Below, piece after piece: positions 2,008 to 48,893 of a stretch of 64,000 nucleotides of DNA. Source of the DNA: a phage; NCBI GenBank assembly GCA_011911785.1, contig GCA_011911785.1_4084.1. The stretch is one strand, 5' to 3'. The notes under the pieces were generated by a model. It was not told the origin of the DNA and ran no database searches. It saw nothing but the letters and a program-made list of their open reading frames with translations. The position numbers were made by a program, and so were the translations under genes. The number at the start of each line of letters is the position of its first letter. Within the stretch, counting starts at the first letter, position 1.

Positions 2008-2698
2008 ACCTGTATATCAATGTAAATTTTGTGATCGTGAATTTAAACGTGAAGACACAGTACATTCTCACAAATGTGAAAAGCGTGATAGATATGAAAA
2101 TCGAGACAGCCGCACCATGCGTGAGGCTTTTCGTTTATATATGCAATTCATGGAAACTAACAATTTCAAAATTAAAAAAGATGTAGAACCATATATTAGT
2201 TTTATCAAGTCAAGATACTTTAAAGATTTCTATGATTTTGCAGAATACTATTTGAATAATAGGGATATATTACATATAGATGATTTCACTTTACATCTTA
2301 TGAGAACCAATGTTCCCATTATGCAATGGAGTACATATAAAGCTAAGGATGAATGGATACTTTCATGTATACGTAATGAGCACCCCAACGATGCTGTTGC
2401 CAGAAGCGTAAATGCTTTAGTTGAATGGGAACAAATGACAAATAATCCGTGGAACACATTCTTTAAGAATGTTAGTTCTGCACGTTTGATTTCTTGGATT
2501 GAAAGTGGTAAAATATCACCTTGGTTGATATGGACTGCCCCTGTGAGTTCATCCAATGAATTGTTCTCACGACTATCAGATTCTGAATTTGAATATATAC
2601 TTAAATACATCGATCCTAGCTTTTTTGAAATTAAAAAGTTGAAGTATAAGAAAGAGTTTGAGGATATAAGAAGTATGTTAACTCAGGTGGGTTTATGA
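1991..2698 (+). CDS. hypothetical protein with N-terminal C2H2-like zinc-finger motif (235 aa)
   Basis: ORF track; CKFC...HSHKC spacing near N-terminus; overlaps previous gene by 17 nt. Confidence 0.5.
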   Translation: MAKISKPVYQCKFCDREFKREDTVHSHKCEKRDRYENRDSRTMREAFRLYMQFMETNNFKIKKDVEPYISFIKSRYFKDFYDFAEYYLNNRDILHIDDFTLHLMRTNVPIMQWSTYKAKDEWILSCIRNEHPNDAVARSVNALVEWEQMTNNPWNTFFKNVSSARLISWIESGKISPWLIWTAPVSSSNELFSRLSDSEFEYILKYIDPSFFEIKKLKYKKEFEDIRSMLTQVGL

Positions 2699-3024
2699 AT
2701 AATAAAAGTATATACAATAAAATACCAGAAGGGTACGTTCCTGTACCTAAATCGGACAAAAGTAAAGAATTACAATTACTTCGTCAAGGAAGTATAACTG
2801 AAATAACATTGGGTGACAAAACGTTCCAAGTTCATGATCCAGTAAAAATAGAACAATTGATTAAGCTAGTCGAGAGGCATGAAGAACGTTTACATTCTGT
2901 GTCTAATGAGACAGCACAATTGAAAAGAAAGATTCAGTACATGGAAAACGAAATACGAACCTTAAGAAATTCTATTAATAAATTACAGGATCAAATAAAG
3001 AATGCAGGATTCAACCAATTCTAA
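2695..3024 (+). CDS. hypothetical coiled-coil protein (109 aa)
   Basis: ORF track; ATGA stop-start overlap with previous gene. Confidence 0.5.
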   Translation: MNNKSIYNKIPEGYVPVPKSDKSKELQLLRQGSITEITLGDKTFQVHDPVKIEQLIKLVERHEERLHSVSNETAQLKRKIQYMENEIRTLRNSINKLQDQIKNAGFNQF

Positions 3025-3640
3025 TCATTACAGAAAAGCTAGAACAGATATTGATATTGATTTTAAAGATAGTAAATCTGTCATAGCTCAATTGCCATGT
3101 GTAAGAAGTACTGAAAAGATTACAGAAGATGGATTGATTGCACATAATAGTGGTGTACACTTTGATAATATTCCAATCGATCCAATAACTGGTTTGGCGA
3201 GTATACAATATAAAGAAGCCGAAAGATTGGGGTATCAGAAGGTTGATATCCTTTCACAATCGGCTTACATGTATGTTCGTGACAGAGAACATTTAAAGGA
3301 ACTGATGAACAGAGAGCCTAATTGGGATCTGTTGTTAGAACCAGAAATTGTTGATCATTTATCACAAATTAAAAAGCATATAACTTTACTTAATGTTTGG
3401 AAACCCCGTTCTATAGACGAGTTGGCTATGTTTATTGCTATGATTCGCCCAGGGAAACGAAATTGTCAAAGTATGAACTCTTGGTCTGAAGTAGAATCGG
3501 TTATTTGGGATTATAGTAGTATTGGGCTAGATAGTGAGGGCAAAAAATTGCGTTATTTTAAAAAACCACATGCTTATGCTTATAGCTTAATGATTGTGGT
3601 ACAATTAAACGCATTGGTTGAACATCTTACTTCTTCTTAA
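3002..3640 (+). CDS. hypothetical protein (212 aa)
   Basis: ORF track. Confidence 0.5.
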   Translation: MQDSTNSNHYRKARTDIDIDFKDSKSVIAQLPCVRSTEKITEDGLIAHNSGVHFDNIPIDPITGLASIQYKEAERLGYQKVDILSQSAYMYVRDREHLKELMNREPNWDLLLEPEIVDHLSQIKKHITLLNVWKPRSIDELAMFIAMIRPGKRNCQSMNSWSEVESVIWDYSSIGLDSEGKKLRYFKKPHAYAYSLMIVVQLNALVEHLTSS

Positions 3641-42175: not shown

Positions 42176-42212
42176 TTGACATATAAATGTGCCCATTGTA
42201 TAATGGGCACAT
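42176..42212 (+). promoter_or_regulatory. consensus sigma70 promoter with -10 at centre of a palindrome
   Basis: TTGACA at 42176-81, TATAAT at 42199-204; palindrome ATGTGCCCATT-GTAT-AATGGGCACAT (42187-42212). Confidence 0.6.
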
Positions 42213-42240: not shown

Positions 42241-42939
42241 ATGGCAGATAAAGTTACACACTATGCAGTTGATATTGAATCTTTCGGAACTCCAGAACGT
42301 AGTGGTTATGATATTACCATTCCAAATTACGCAATTGTTTTAGTTCCAACTAACCCAATGAAAGATATCTCACGTTATGCATATGTTAAACTACCATTCC
42401 AAAAACAAATTGATGCTGGTCTTAAAGTTGATGCAGGTTCAATGAACTTTTGGATGAATATGTGTCAAAATGATCATAAAGGTGCATATGAAGAAGTAGT
42501 TAGTACACTCACGTTGACAGAACCAGAAATTATTTCCGGTAGTCAAAACAATTTGTATAAAACAAAAAATGTACTTGATTTGTGGAATGCACTTCGTTAT
42601 GATCTTAATGGAAATGAGAACAATATTGAAATTTGGGGTAATGGCTGTCACTTCGATTGTAGTATTCTTCAAGCAAACCATCGTAAAATGTTTGGTGTGG
42701 GCGAATTGTGGAAATACAATGCACCACAGAATGCCCGAAGTGTTAAGAATCGCCTAACTGAAGATGAAAAATTTGACATGGATTCCATTGTTGATGTACA
42801 ATTGAAAAAGTTTGTGGAGATGGTTGCTGATCATGGTCTTTATGGTCTAGAACTTCACCACCCATTATTCGATGCAGCACGTGAAGCTATCCAGGTTTCA
42901 TATTGCTTAAATGCAATCAACGAACGCGGAAACTATTAA
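42241..42939 (+). CDS. dexA: DEDDh 3'-5' exonuclease (T4 DexA-like)
   Basis: Exo I VDIESFG, Exo II GCHFDCSIL, Exo III HHPLFDAAREA; about 232 aa, similar to T4 DexA. Confidence 0.7.
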   Translation: MADKVTHYAVDIESFGTPERSGYDITIPNYAIVLVPTNPMKDISRYAYVKLPFQKQIDAGLKVDAGSMNFWMNMCQNDHKGAYEEVVSTLTLTEPEIISGSQNNLYKTKNVLDLWNALRYDLNGNENNIEIWGNGCHFDCSILQANHRKMFGVGELWKYNAPQNARSVKNRLTEDEKFDMDSIVDVQLKKFVEMVADHGLYGLELHHPLFDAAREAIQVSYCLNAINERGNY

Positions 42940-44604: not shown

Positions 44605-44633
44605 GGGGAGTACATTATTGTACTCCCTTTTTA
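44605..44633 (+). terminator. intrinsic terminator
   Basis: GGGAGTACA-TTAT-TGTACTCCC hairpin followed by TTTTT. Confidence 0.7.
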
Positions 44634-44647
44634 ATAGGATATAAACT

Positions 44648-45229
44648 ATGTTTTATAATGAAACTCTTAAGTTGTTCGAGCGTATAGCAGAAATCAAAAA
44701 GCGTGCATATGATAATATAATTCTTCCTTATAGTTTTGAATCAGATACTATAATTTTTAAAATGAAACATCATGCTCGTCATTATGAATTTATTTTAGGG
44801 ATAAAAGAACCTAAAATTGAATCCAATGTTCCAAATATATCATCATCTATCGCAGTTCCAAGCGGTGTAAATATTGCCCACGGTCATCCAATGACAATTG
44901 CGGCAACTTCATCCAATACGATTATTGAGCGTTATATTAAAGTTTGTACAACAACAGCTATGCAAAATATCATATCAGTTGAGTGGAGTGAACTACCAAG
45001 TAACTTCATTTACTTCACCAATAGTAATGGTACAACATCTGAGAAAGAATCTATGGGTAATAAGATTATGTCAGCTATGATTCTACATGAAAAAACGCTT
45101 ATCAATGGTGAAATATATTCATTAGAAGACAATCCAGATGCATTTATTAAAGACATTGAGGGTTCCAATAAATTTAGTATTTTAGAAGTATTAAATCTTG
45201 AAAAGGATTATAAACATGCAATACGATAA
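44648..45229 (+). CDS. hypothetical protein (193 aa)
   Basis: ORF track; AGGA RBS. Confidence 0.5.
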   Translation: MFYNETLKLFERIAEIKKRAYDNIILPYSFESDTIIFKMKHHARHYEFILGIKEPKIESNVPNISSSIAVPSGVNIAHGHPMTIAATSSNTIIERYIKVCTTTAMQNIISVEWSELPSNFIYFTNSNGTTSEKESMGNKIMSAMILHEKTLINGEIYSLEDNPDAFIKDIEGSNKFSILEVLNLEKDYKHAIR

Positions 45230-45746
45230 TAAAGATCTACCATATCTCCCCGATCTGGAAAGAGGTGTTAATGAGTTCGTTCAGGTAATATCAGAGTGGG
45301 ATGTATCAGTATTTTCATATAATCGTAAGAAGGATTTCGAATATAAAGGCGTTCATTTTTTTATCACGGATAATTTAATAACCCTGCAATCTAAAATAGA
45401 AATGTTTGGATCTTTAGACCCCATATATCGTCAGCCATATTCTGATCCATACAAAGAAAATATTGCAAGAATGTTTGAAAATAGAACAAGACAATATACC
45501 CGAAATTATTTTGGTACTTTCGATTTCACTAAAAAAGGTACATTGGTTGGATATACCATATCAACAGAATCTTTCACATCTATACATAGTGTGATTCTTG
45601 GTGAGAAAAAAATGTTAGTTAATAATGAAGATTGGTTAGACCGTGAAAATTTTCATGAATATGCATTTCAGCATTCTGTAGCAAATCCAAAAGAACCATT
45701 TGATGTGTTCTTTATTTCTAATGTATTAAGAATGTTAGGAGAATAA
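45216..45746 (+). CDS. hypothetical protein (176 aa)
   Basis: ATG 45216 with AAGGA RBS. Confidence 0.5.
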   Translation: MQYDNKDLPYLPDLERGVNEFVQVISEWDVSVFSYNRKKDFEYKGVHFFITDNLITLQSKIEMFGSLDPIYRQPYSDPYKENIARMFENRTRQYTRNYFGTFDFTKKGTLVGYTISTESFTSIHSVILGEKKMLVNNEDWLDRENFHEYAFQHSVANPKEPFDVFFISNVLRMLGE

Positions 45747-45747
45747 T

Positions 45748-46101
45748 ATGTTGATTTACTTATGTGTGCTTTTGGTTTCATTGGTTGTAGCAGTATTAGT
45801 ACTGAAAACTATTTCAACTATTCGTTCTAAAATTGATAAACATCAAGAAAATTCTGTTATCGATTTAGTTATGGATTTTCCTAAAATCAGTGCAGCCGTT
45901 GTTTTTGTTGTTATGTTATTTGGAACATACTGCGTAAAAGGCTACCTCTATGGTATGTATGATTGTAGCGTTCGCTCATATTCACAAGGTGTCGAAACTG
46001 ACTATAGCTGGTACTATGGTAAGTGTCGTTTTAAAAATGAGCATGGTATTTGGGTAGATTTTGATAAACTACGCGGAACACCATCAGGTGATGAAGAATA
46101 A
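45748..46101 (+). CDS. small membrane protein (117 aa)
   Basis: ORF track; GGAG RBS; N-terminal TM helix. Confidence 0.5.
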   Translation: MLIYLCVLLVSLVVAVLVLKTISTIRSKIDKHQENSVIDLVMDFPKISAAVVFVVMLFGTYCVKGYLYGMYDCSVRSYSQGVETDYSWYYGKCRFKNEHGIWVDFDKLRGTPSGDEE

Positions 46102-46595
46102 TGTTTGAATTTCCTGATGAACAACCAAAAAACTACATTGACTGTACTGAAGATGGATACACGCATATCAATATCTACAGTAAAGGGAAAACTAAGCTAG
46201 GGAGAGATTTATCTAATTTTTCTCCCCATAGCTTTACACTAGAACCATATGGATGGTTTCCTTCGGTTGAGTCTTTTTATTTCTGGTTCCTCACTGGACA
46301 ACAGCATGAAGAACTTAGAAAGGTATCAGGAGCCGCAGCGAAAGCCGCTGCAAACAAATATATGCATGACCGTATAGAGATGACACCTGAGCGATTAAAT
46401 GTAATCCAGGATGCGATATGTGCTAAAATAATGCAGAATCCTGAACTTGCTGAACGATTGCGTAAAAGTACTCTGAAGTTTGAGCATTATTATTTGTATG
46501 GTGGTAAGATTATTGATGTTAGTGATGACCACCGTTGGTTTGTTCAGACCTTTGAGGATATCAGAACAGTACTGAAGGAGATGAATAATGGATAA
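46101..46595 (+). CDS. hypothetical protein, possible NADAR (YbiA-like) domain
   Basis: C-terminal AKIMQNPELAERLRKST resembles the NADAR motif AKF.QNP.L...LL.T; 164 aa. Confidence 0.35.
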   Translation: MFEFPDEQPKNYIDCTEDGYTHINIYSKGKTKLGRDLSNFSPHSFTLEPYGWFPSVESFYFWFLTGQQHEELRKVSGAAAKAAANKYMHDRIEMTPERLNVIQDAICAKIMQNPELAERLRKSTLKFEHYYLYGGKIIDVSDDHRWFVQTFEDIRTVLKEMNNG

Positions 46596-46863
46596 AGTGA
46601 AAATTTGTTGTCTTGAATGTGAGATGTTTGTCACTCCGTCTGATACAATGTTGACAATAGAGGAACAAGTCTTTCCATTAAGAGGTGGCTATATAAAATT
46701 ACCAACACCATTTTATAGTACATCTTGTTCAATATGTGGTAATGAACTTGTTCTTCATGAGTTGAATCACGTTAATATTATGGTTGTAAATGCAATTAGT
46801 TCGTATGCAAAAGAATTGGTTAGAAATGACAGTTCATTTGCACATTTATGGGGTTTCAACTGA
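46588..46863 (+). CDS. zinc-ribbon protein (two CxxC pairs), paralogue of next gene
   Basis: CCLECE ... CSICGNE; GAAGGAG RBS. Confidence 0.5.
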   Translation: MDKVKICCLECEMFVTPSDTMLTIEEQVFPLRGGYIKLPTPFYSTSCSICGNELVLHELNHVNIMVVNAISSYAKELVRNDSSFAHLWGFN

Positions 46864-46864
46864 T

Positions 46865-47137
46865 ATGAATCATTCAAGAACTTGTTGGATATGTTACAAT
46901 AAGGATGTAGATCATACTCTTGAACTTGAATATATGGAGATGAACTATGCAACAGACGTAAGATCATTTTCTGCTGGTCGTGTTATAATAAAAACACCAC
47001 AATATCAGTGTTTGTGTTCAGTGTGTGGTGGGAATGGTGTATATCGCAATGAGGTTCAAATGGTAAATGATGCTATTGAGCTTTATTTTGGACAATATGT
47101 TTTGGATTTATATAAAAATGAACAAACTAACATTTGA
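46865..47137 (+). CDS. zinc-ribbon protein (two CxxC pairs), paralogue of previous gene
   Basis: CWICYNK ... CSVCGGNG; first ATG after previous stop. Confidence 0.5.
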   Translation: MNHSRTCWICYNKDVDHTLELEYMEMNYATDVRSFSAGRVIIKTPQYQCLCSVCGGNGVYRNEVQMVNDAIELYFGQYVLDLYKNEQTNI

Positions 47138-47348
47138 TGCAACCCCAATAAATGAACTTTTAGTGCCCAGTGAAGGAAGCACTGTTAAAATGAACATGTA
47201 CTGGATTGTCAAAGATGGAAATGTATTCAGACATAAAATAACAAAAGTATGGCAATGTAACAAAAATGAAAGTATTGTTAAGATGATAGCTAATACTGTA
47301 GATGGTGCTGAAGTTGTTTTTATGCCGTATGCATATATTAAGGAATAA
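47118..47348 (+). CDS. hypothetical protein (76 aa)
   Basis: In-frame ATG 47118; weak RBS. Confidence 0.4.
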   Translation: MNKLTFDATPINELLVPSEGSTVKMNMYWIVKDGNVFRHKITKVWQCNKNESIVKMIANTVDGAEVVFMPYAYIKE

Positions 47349-47362
47349 ACATGAAAAAAGAG

Positions 47363-47391
47363 TTGACAATATTCGTCATTCCAACTATAAT
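47363..47391 (+). promoter_or_regulatory. consensus sigma70 promoter (TTGACA-N17-TATAAT)
   Basis: TTGACA at 47363-68, TATAAT at 47386-91. Confidence 0.55.
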
Positions 47392-47513
47392 GTTGATATT
47401 GGCTCTGGTGTTCCCACAATCACATGTGGTTATGCTTAACATCATAGAACTAATTTTATTGGTAATACACTGTATTGTCTGTTACTATTACATTAACAGT
47501 AATGAGGATCGTG

Positions 47514-47936
47514 ATGAAGTATTATAAAATTCGTATCATTACCAGTTCAGGGGCATCAGCGTGGATTTTTTATGATCTTCCAGATTCATATACCATCGAT
47601 GATGTAAAAGATTTATACTACGAAGATAACAATTGGGTTTTTGATTTAGAATCCAAAAGTGTAGAGATTGATGAGATTACTGAACAAGAATACAAGATTG
47701 GCACACAAGCTATGAAGTACTTTGAACGTAATCTTAAAATGTTACAGGAAAATGTGTTCCCTGTAAAAGAATGGGCAATTCTCCTTGCTAATTCCAATAA
47801 ACCTGTTAGAATTGGTTATCCAAACTTTCATATGGTATATCGTATGAATGAAAATCGTGAATTGAGTTATCAATTTGATTACGATGCTGCTAAGTTTGGT
47901 GTTCTGAAATCGTTTGAAAAGGCATATCCAGTATGA
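47514..47936 (+). CDS. hypothetical protein (140 aa)
   Basis: ATG 47514 with GAGGA RBS; ORF-track start 47475 runs back over the promoter. Confidence 0.5.
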   Translation: MKYYKIRIITSSGASAWIFYDLPDSYTIDDVKDLYYEDNNWVFDLESKSVEIDEITEQEYKIGTQAMKYFERNLKMLQENVFPVKEWAILLANSNKPVRIGYPNFHMVYRMNENRELSYQFDYDAAKFGVLKSFEKAYPV

Positions 47937-48268
47937 GTAAAGATAGCAAAGAGTTTATGTTGCGTTGTACTTGTGGTGATAAAAATGAACATTGTGTTCA
48001 CATTGCACAATTTGACTTGACAGAAGAACACGGTGATGATAAACTTGGTCAATGTACAGTCAGTATGCGTTTGAATCCTTTTCTTAAATGGTACAAGCGT
48101 GTATGGGTTGCAGTGAAGTATGTTTTTGGTCGCAATGACTTTCATTACGTAGAAGCTGAAATTGATGTTGACATTCTTAAAGAAGTTGTGTTACAATTAG
48201 ATGATACACGAACTGATGAGGAAAAGAAAGACGCACGAAATAAACGTAGTGATGTGAAGGTTTTATGA
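47933..48268 (+). CDS. hypothetical protein (111 aa)
   Basis: ORF track; ATGA overlap. Confidence 0.5.
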   Translation: MSKDSKEFMLRCTCGDKNEHCVHIAQFDLTEEHGDDKLGQCTVSMRLNPFLKWYKRVWVAVKYVFGRNDFHYVEAEIDVDILKEVVLQLDDTRTDEEKKDARNKRSDVKVL

Positions 48269-48459
48269 ACGTCGAGTTGATTGAAAAAAAGTACTGTACA
48301 AATTGCAATACAGCGTATACAATACAAGGTATGTTAGTTTGTACAACATGTCAGGCAACAGAAACAGCAACATTTTTGGTTGATGACCGATTCAGTGATT
48401 TGAAACAATTCAAAGCTAATCGCAATCTCCGTAACTTTAGTGATATGAATAAGGAATGA
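48265..48459 (+). CDS. small zinc-ribbon protein (64 aa)
   Basis: CTNC...CTTC; ATGA overlap. Confidence 0.5.
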   Translation: MNVELIEKKYCTNCNTAYTIQGMLVCTTCQATETATFLVDDRFSDLKQFKANRNLRNFSDMNKE

Positions 48460-48893
48460 ATATGAATCTTGAACAAGTAATCCGTAACAACCCATTCTTC
48501 GCAGAAAACCCTTCTCGTGTAATTGAAGCGATTAAAGTTGAAGAGCTAATGATTACCGTCAAATATAAAGAAGAAGGTGATGAAATTAGTAGCGTAGTAT
48601 GTGCTCTTCGTGCACCTTTCCGTAAAGAAGCAGCTAAGAAACCAGCATATGTACTATCTATCTGCTTGGGTTGTGTAGTTAAACTGGTTGTTGATGAAAA
48701 TAGTTTCAACATCAAGGTTGCACCAACTAATGATGATGAGAATGTTGATCTCAACTTTGATGGTGGGTTGCCAGAAGAAGAATTCTTCCAACAGTCACTT
48801 GTTGTAGATTTCCGTTCAGTAACTTATGACCATATCAAACTAATCAATGAAATGGTTGATATCGTCGCTAAGTTCGAAGAAGAAACCGCATAA
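48456..48893 (+). CDS. EE-x-FQ-x-SL motif family protein (member 1)
   Basis: C-proximal PEEEFFQQSLVVDF motif shared with 10 other ORFs. Confidence 0.55.
   Translation: MNMNLEQVIRNNPFFAENPSRVIEAIKVEELMITVKYKEEGDEISSVVCALRAPFRKEAAKKPAYVLSICLGCVVKLVVDENSFNIKVAPTNDDENVDLNFDGGLPEEEFFQQSLVVDFRSVTYDHIKLINEMVDIVAKFEEETA

Follow-up and report, generated by a model that had tools for sequence, protein, structure and literature searches.

Paralogous zinc-ribbon-like genes at a slot of variable copy number in Asteriusvirus jumbo phages

The question raised by this locus is whether two adjacent small open reading frames (ORFs), each carrying two pairs of closely spaced cysteines, are genuine paralogues with a zinc-ribbon fold and, if so, what they may do for the phage. 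The ORFs lie in a 64,000-nucleotide (nt) stretch of phage DNA (NCBI GenBank assembly GCA_011911785.1, contig GCA_011911785.1_4084.1), which is referred to below as the window. Across 45700-48500 it matches the genome of Escherichia phage A4 (ON286972.1) at 99.5% identity. A4 is an Asteriusvirus jumbo phage of 355.5 kb whose isolation host is E. coli LF82, and in its genome the two ORFs correspond to A4_102 (copy 1) and A4_103 (copy 2), both labelled “hypothetical protein” in GenBank. We are highly confident in the account of the genes, their predicted fold and their evolution that is given in the next two sections. The explanation as a whole, in which these would be real and ancient zinc-ribbon paralogues acting as early protein binders, is rated about even.

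Paralogy, predicted fold and selection

The paired cysteines (knuckles) of A4_102 are CLEC (residues 8-11) and CSIC (residues 47-50), and those of A4_103 are CWIC (residues 7-10) and CSVC (residues 51-54). An earlier note on this DNA, made from the sequence alone, had proposed tandem paralogous zinc-ribbon proteins of 90 amino acids (aa) with the same CxxC spacing. The coordinates and the two CxxC pairs in each ORF were confirmed, whereas the lengths proved to be 91 and 90 aa and the distance from first to third Cys 39 residues in A4_102 versus 44 in A4_103, which is similar but not identical. This difference of five residues is due to an indel in the hairpin loop. When the two proteins were compared by BLASTP, pairwise alignment being a check that the note itself had recommended, the match spanned 57 aa with 28% identity (E 1e-6), and a profile of the A4_102 lineage matched A4_103 with an E of 5.9e-9 (single comparison). 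Just four of the 112 plus-strand ORFs of at least 60 aa in the window contain two CxxC motifs (A4_102, A4_103, A4_108 and the primase), so the adjacency of two such ORFs is not due to chance. In an alignment of eleven family sequences the four Cys are invariant, and the same holds for one Asn and two Tyr, of which one precedes the third Cys by four residues and the other lies in the helix. Judged by these comparisons, A4_102 and A4_103 are true paralogues, and the central claim of the earlier note was borne out by the alignment, by the invariant Cys and by the common topology of the predicted structures.

Among known families the closest to the pair is phrog_35738, an uncharacterised Asteriusvirus family that includes gp74 of phage 121Q. 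Searches with the hidden Markov model of this family gave a very strong match for 121Q gp74 (E 2.6e-66), a weak one for A4_103 (E 6.6e-4, 21 bits) and none for A4_102, and custom profiles joined both A4 proteins to the 121Q-type family. A4_103 occupies the same slot as the phrog_35738 members and has the same length and the same four Cys, but it is only 22-33% identical to them, and A4_102 is linked to them through profiles alone. By tblastn, A4_103 showed 26-33% identity to its counterparts in other Asteriusviruses.

AlphaFold2 models of A4_102 and A4_103 were built with the family alignment. Both models have the same topology, consisting of an N-terminal CxxC knuckle, a long two-stranded β-hairpin with strands of 13-15 residues each, a second CxxC knuckle where strand 2 ends, and a C-terminal helix of ~27 residues. 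The A4_103 model (strands 17-29 and 39-51, helix 62-88) has a predicted local distance difference test score (pLDDT) of 86 and a predicted template modelling score of 0.70. The A4_102 model (strands 17-31 and 34-47, helix 57-87) has a pLDDT of 76, and its first knuckle is ill-defined (pLDDT below 50). The order of knuckle, strand, strand, knuckle, short bridge and helix fits the zinc-ribbon layout at the level of predicted secondary structure, and structure prediction, the other check recommended at the outset, gave a topology compatible with a zinc ribbon for both proteins. The models fit zinc ribbons with an extended hairpin, in which the four invariant Cys presumably hold one structural zinc ion. 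Conservation in the family peaks at the two knuckles, and the parts that vary most are the hairpin loop and the helix.

Selection was assessed with L007, an A4-like metagenomic phage, as reference. Between A4 and L007 the synonymous divergence was ~0.65-0.77 in A4_102 and A4_103 and 1.18 in the upstream gene A4_101, and the ratio of nonsynonymous to synonymous divergence (dN/dS) was 0.25, 0.28 and 0.04 for A4_102, A4_103 and A4_101, respectively. The synonymous excess was significant for both members of the pair (Fisher test, p 7e-6 for A4_102 and 1e-4 for A4_103), and both genes are intact in L007. Their reading frames are also unbroken in four independent metagenomic contigs. A4_102 and A4_103 are real genes under purifying selection. 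Of 14 syntenic genes they are also the two that have diverged furthest, with 66% (A4_102) and 75% (A4_103) aa identity between A4 and L007 compared to 77-99% for the other twelve (88-99% if the 58-aa A4_105, at 77%, is set aside). Between A4 and 121Q, the zinc-ribbon copy common to both phages is 26% identical at the aa level and most neighbours 62-83%. Such fast evolution, and the orphan status of A4_102 in direct searches, could be taken to mean that the ORFs are decaying or non-functional remnants, or that their CxxC motifs arose by chance. That explanation is already contradicted by the significant purifying selection on both genes, by Cys that stay invariant across deep divergence, by the confidently predicted fold of A4_103 and by the intact frames in the four contigs, and we regard it as very improbable.

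Distribution and age of the duplication

When 5.8 billion proteins were searched, and 1.8 billion representatives exhaustively, the family was seen only in Asteriusvirus-like sequences. The exhaustive search, run by phmmer with A4_103, returned family members and two repetitive artefacts (P0011 and P0013), and a direct homology search with A4_102 returned only the query, with no homologue outside A4-like phages. Within the Asteriusvirus-like group the location of the genes is constant, a slot bounded by A4_101 and A4_104, and the number of zinc-ribbon copies in this slot varies. There are two copies in A4 and in four A4-like contigs, one in 121Q, Turkey5, JNE01 and UE-S1, and none in RaK2, where the homologues of A4_101 and A4_104 are directly adjacent. 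The family was absent at the equivalent slot from RaK2 and from the more distant phages fHe-Yen9-04, CBB and GAP32.

The highest number of copies was found in an uncultured relative represented by the metagenomic contigs L011, L012 and L013, in which the slot of the A4 pair is taken by a tandem array (positions 923-4141 of L011, a Logan contig of SRR28368733). The array comprises ~8 consecutive small ORFs with a CxxC, hairpin, Y-x3-CxxC and helix design, along with four more small ORFs that lack Cys and have a similar C-terminal tail (“EYxxLL”). Three of its members are significant family members (E <3e-3), and the rest are tied to the family by architecture and weak scores (E 0.002-0.09). A word-indexed search with a 17-sequence alignment returned only array members of this same metagenomic clade.

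Profile comparisons place A4_103, 121Q gp74, the Turkey5 protein and the product of L011 3449-3670 (P0012) in one orthologous line, in which the copy-2 profile matched the Turkey5 protein with 47 bits and P0012 with 43 bits. By position, too, A4_103 is orthologous to P0012 of L011 and to the one copy present in 121Q, Turkey5 and JNE01. A4_102 is the more divergent paralogue, and its best match (E 3.2e-6) and positional orthologue is L011 3216-3452, the gene directly upstream of P0012, for whose product tblastn against GenBank phages found no match. The order of copy 1 followed by copy 2 is therefore kept between A4 and L011, and since each copy has its own L011 orthologue in this order, the duplication predates the split of these clades. 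Most simply, the single-copy Asteriusviruses appear to have lost copy 1. A recent tandem duplication was considered and ruled out by the 28% identity of the two proteins and by the L011 orthologues of each, and no nucleotide repeats that could mark a recent duplication or a mobile element were found between or around A4_102 and A4_103.

Two annotations of A4_103 orthologues deserve a comment. In fEgEco12 (H34) the orthologue is labelled “DNA primase/helicase”, a label that nothing in the present analysis backs. In CMSTMSU a 138-aa protein has been called at the orthologue (L005 1492-1908) and the gene calls across the block are patchy and mostly short, which suggests sequencing or annotation errors.

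The locus and its neighbours

The coordinates of the pair and of the features around it are collected in Table 1. The genes around the pair all lie on the plus strand, and the surrounding block consists of replication and nucleotide-metabolism genes interspersed with many small genes that have no assigned role. The start of A4_102 shares 8 nt with the 3' end of A4_101. The single nucleotide between the A4_102 stop and the A4_103 start suggests translational coupling of the second gene to the first; upstream of the A4_103 start only a weak and distant GGGG was found, and the L011 counterparts of the two genes overlap by 4 nt. Some automatic gene calls (P0008 and P0010) use a longer in-frame version of A4_103 that starts at 46790, but the short form is favoured because the orthologues match it. 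An Rfam scan of the region gave no RNA.

Table 1. Coordinates of the gene pair, its flanking features and a Cys/His-rich protein of related phages
Sequence	Feature	Position	Strand	Length	Remarks
Window	A4_101, upstream boundary of the slot	46101-46595	+	164 aa	phrog_652, conserved
Window	Strong Shine-Dalgarno AAGGAG	46575-46580	+		7 nt before the A4_102 ATG; read from the sequence
Window	A4_102 (copy 1)	46588-46863	+	91 aa	ORF list and GenBank coding sequence
Window	TGAtATG junction	46861-46867	+		A4_102 stop and A4_103 start 1 nt apart; read from the sequence
Window	A4_103 (copy 2)	46865-47137	+	90 aa	ATG 46865, stop 47135-47137; ORF list and GenBank coding sequence
Window	A4_104, downstream boundary of the slot	47118-47348	+	76 aa	phrog_13902
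Window	Perfect sigma-70 promoter	47363-47391	+		inside the A4_105 coding sequence (47351-47527), a small hydrophobic ORF
Window	A4_108	48265-48459	+		CxxC-x11-CxxC short zinc ribbon, phrog_27170
L011	Cys/His-rich protein	2803-3237			
L017	Cys/His-rich protein	2328-2690			
L018	Cys/His-rich protein	2299-2646			
L019	Cys/His-rich protein	2605-2952			

Both boundaries of the slot are conserved genes. A4_104 is conserved throughout the RaK2-like superclade, and A4_101 has 79-84% aa identity to its homologues in 121Q, Turkey5 and RaK2. The Turkey5 homologue is labelled as a NADAR domain and A4_101 matches TIGR02464 under the cutoff (E 0.01), while Pfam and PDB sequence searches, including an attempt with a profile against the PDB, gave no match, so that an identity of A4_101 as a NADAR-domain protein is weakly supported. 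In fHe-Yen9-04, CBB and GAP32 the A4_101 homologue is 239 aa long and is found near genes for a NadM-like adenylyltransferase and PnuC. Upstream of the slot, these three phages and the L011 clade have a conserved Cys/His-rich protein of 115-144 aa with the motif YNPEYGD.R.CECGHSY.RHF...GCKYC.C, a putative small metal-binding protein.

A second divergence hotspot adjoins the slot. It comprises A4_98 and A4_99 (44648-45746, 176-193 aa), which have 26-30% aa identity to 121Q and RaK2 compared to 67-83% for the flanking genes, and which are 97-99% identical between A4 and L007 despite this hypervariability across species.

The third small CxxC protein that the earlier note had listed, A4_108, does exist as an ORF but was rejected as a third paralogue, as it belongs to a different PHROG (27170 instead of 35738), scores an E of 2.8 against the family profile and has the spacing CxxC-x11-CxxC. 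The gene belongs to the conserved core, with 67% identity in RaK2 and 75% in 121Q, and gave sub-threshold matches to DZR and A2L ribbons. Its neighbour A4_107 (47933-48268, phrog_12660), for which 121Q and RaK2 carry the label of virion structural protein, contains a Cys/His cluster (CTCGDKNEHCVH). Unlike A4_102 and A4_103, both A4_107 and A4_108 are core genes of the RaK2-like superclade.

The sigma-70 consensus TTGACA-N17-TATAAT occurs in perfect form at three positions of the region, all on the plus strand (40969, 42176 and 47363), compared to 0.18 expected. Turkey5, JNE01, the A4-like contigs and the L011 clade share a perfect promoter at the place equivalent to 47363, a short way downstream of the slot. 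The promoter at 42176-42204 overlaps a palindrome (42187-42212, 11-bp stem) that is terminator-like on both strands and whose loop and stem include the -10 hexamer, an arrangement that might represent an operator or point to regulation of the promoter. The genes in the neighbourhood of the pair include a NADAR-like gene, a peptidyl-tRNA hydrolase, an exoribonuclease and a methyltransferase, and such neighbourhoods have been described as early host-manipulation regions (Iyer et al., PMC9503650). Given the host-type promoters, transcription by the host polymerase, and with it the early expression assumed in the earlier note, is plausible.

Possible functions and their significance

Searches of Pfam, NCBIfam, PHROGs and PADLOC with A4_102 and A4_103 identified no regulator or defence family above threshold, PDB sequence searches with the family profiles gave no match, and no catalytic motif or domain was present in either protein. 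Foldseek comparisons of both models with the PDB, and of the A4_103 model with BFVD, returned nothing significant except the mis-called CMSTMSU orthologue, and nothing was found on the family in the literature. All close family members that were scored (18 of 18) are acidic, with isoelectric points (pI) of 4.8-6.2 and net charges of -0.6 to -6.3, which argues against direct binding of nucleic acids.

The zinc-scaffolded fold, the variable surfaces, the acidity and the fast divergence under purifying selection, together with the variable copy number and the early-type neighbourhood, point to zinc-stabilised protein-binding modules for interaction with host (or phage) proteins, a role that we propose tentatively and rate somewhat short of an even chance. 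The zinc site would serve as a scaffold only, its knuckles clamping the long β-hairpin with the helix after it, and the fast-changing surfaces of hairpin and helix would contact other proteins, most likely those of the host. Production of A4_102 and A4_103 may begin early, driven by host-type promoters, and serve to take over the host or to counter its defences. Since both copies have been kept under purifying selection, it can be argued that the two A4 proteins are not redundant, and the separate paralogues would probably have separate targets.

Several observations weigh against this proposal. Upstream of the pair the nearest convincing promoter (42773-42802) lies at a distance of over 3.7 kb, with a terminator-like hairpin (44605-44628) between it and A4_102/A4_103. 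Zinc binding is predicted from the motifs and the modelled fold. The wider array is not acidic throughout, one L011 member being basic (pI 9.05). The rapid divergence may be due to weak constraint and not to an arms race, with dN/dS well below 1, and the GenBank annotation gives neither protein a function.

The earlier note had instead remarked that small zinc-ribbon proteins of phage early regions are often modulators that act on host RNA polymerase or bind nucleic acids. On this reading the proteins would be small zinc-ribbon transcription factors, for example activators or inhibitors of the Ogr/Delta type working on host RNA polymerase, or regulators that bind DNA or RNA. P2 Ogr and similar small phage zinc-finger proteins act on RNA polymerase and provide a precedent for this idea, and the zinc-finger late-gene activators P2 Ogr and P4 Delta (PF04606) resemble the A4 proteins as small phage zinc proteins with four Cys and a length of 70-90 aa. 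The Ogr spacing, CxxC-x22-CxxxxC, differs from that of the A4 proteins, however, which are moreover acidic and encoded by a gene that is dispensable in close relatives, and none of 17 family members out of 17 gave a Pfam match to PF04606 at E up to 1. Also in favour of transcription factors, the pair sits among small genes driven by host promoters, and a zinc-ribbon expansion in phage G has been suggested to consist of transcription factors or DNA-binding proteins (Iyer et al., PMC7824862). Against them stand the acidity of all 18 close members, the lack of Pfam or NCBIfam matches to Ogr_Delta, to TFIIB, TFIIS or TFIIE, to primase or to other nucleic-acid-binding ribbons, and the lack of a structural match by Foldseek. 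In addition, a gene that is missing in RaK2 and varies in copy number is unlike a core transcription factor. The idea of a modulator of host RNA polymerase or of nucleic-acid binding is therefore not supported, and we consider it unlikely. The same low probability is assigned to an obligate heterodimer, in which one function would be split over two subunits. Two diverged lineages (A4-like and L011) each keep both copies without a change of order, the stop and start codons of the pair are tightly coupled, and the long exposed hairpin and the helix predicted in each protein could pair; yet one copy suffices in most Asteriusviruses, and tight gene packing is universal in the A4 genome.

A further candidate function, slightly less probable still, is that of an antitoxin mimic. 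The proteins would in that case be forms of the MqsA N-terminal (YgiT-type) zinc domain without the helix-turn-helix (HTH) domain. With the host antitoxin decaying during infection, they would bind and neutralise MqsR/RelE-like RNase toxins of the host, or a different effector of abortive infection, and the paralogues would cover different toxins. Residues 1-76 of MqsA form its toxin-binding domain (PDB 3HI2), which is the part of the protein that the mimic would correspond to. The best, though weak, sequence and structure matches of the copy-1 lineage are to this group. The product of L011 3216-3452 matched TIGR03830 (MqsA family; E 2.7e-5, 24 bits over model positions 1-59, cutoff 61.8), TIGR03831 (YgiT finger; 18.4 bits, cutoff 20.2) and PF15731 (MqsA_antitoxin; E 0.009, 16.5 bits, cutoff 30), and it aligned to E. 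coli MqsA by BLASTP with both knuckles in register (E 9e-5). The L007 orthologue of A4_102 matched TIGR03830 with an E of 0.03, the top PDB match of the A4_102 model in Foldseek was MqsA (3gn5_A; probability 0.63, E 0.2), and the A4_103 model weakly matched phage entries named “MqsA” and “YgiT family” in BFVD. The element order is identical to that of the YgiT finger and the MqsA N-terminus (PDB 3GN5 and 3HI2), with CxxC, β-hairpin, CxxCG and α-helix. MqsR/MqsA has been reported as a phage-defence system of E. coli (PMC13409141; 10.1101/2023.02.25.529695).

On the other hand, every match to these family models is under the curated cutoff, A4_102 and A4_103 themselves match none of the three, an hhalign comparison of the family profiles with E. 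coli MqsA was not significant, and the Foldseek match (E 0.2, template modelling score 0.31) is at noise level. The A4 proteins also differ from MqsA in ending after a single helix (90-91 aa), with no C-terminal HTH, and in having no MqsR-like toxin gene beside them; a Pfam search of six other genes between 45748 and 48456, among them the two that flank the pair, gave neither a toxin domain nor an HTH domain. The second knuckle has the expected G (CSICG in A4_102, CSVCG in A4_103) but the first does not (CLECE and CWICY), and the hairpin is longer, with 35-40 residues between the knuckles compared to 30. Because the proteins of the window have no match, the hhalign comparison was null and Cys-rich zinc ribbons easily yield spurious weak cross-matches, the family has not been filed under MqsA/YgiT. 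If it did belong there, it would form an expandable array of antitoxin decoys, whose copy number (0 to ~8) would track the defence repertoire across the host range; we regard this extension as equally doubtful.

Small zinc-ribbon accessory proteins and their lineage-specific expansions are already known in jumbo phages, with ~35 copies reported in Bacillus phage G (Iyer et al. 2021, PMC7824862). As in that phage, a small zinc-ribbon family has been multiplied in one jumbo-phage lineage, up to ~8 copies in the L011 array, although the two cases differ in host, phage lineage and sequence family, and A4 has two copies only. The A4 pair is one more uncharacterised small zinc-ribbon accessory family and, as such, an ordinary kind of phage accessory gene. 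If the resemblance to the MqsA N-terminus and the YgiT finger were true, the family members would become candidate phage anti-toxin-antitoxin factors. The slot itself, with 0 to ~8 copies in related phages, represents a natural experiment on the diversification of small host-interaction proteins.

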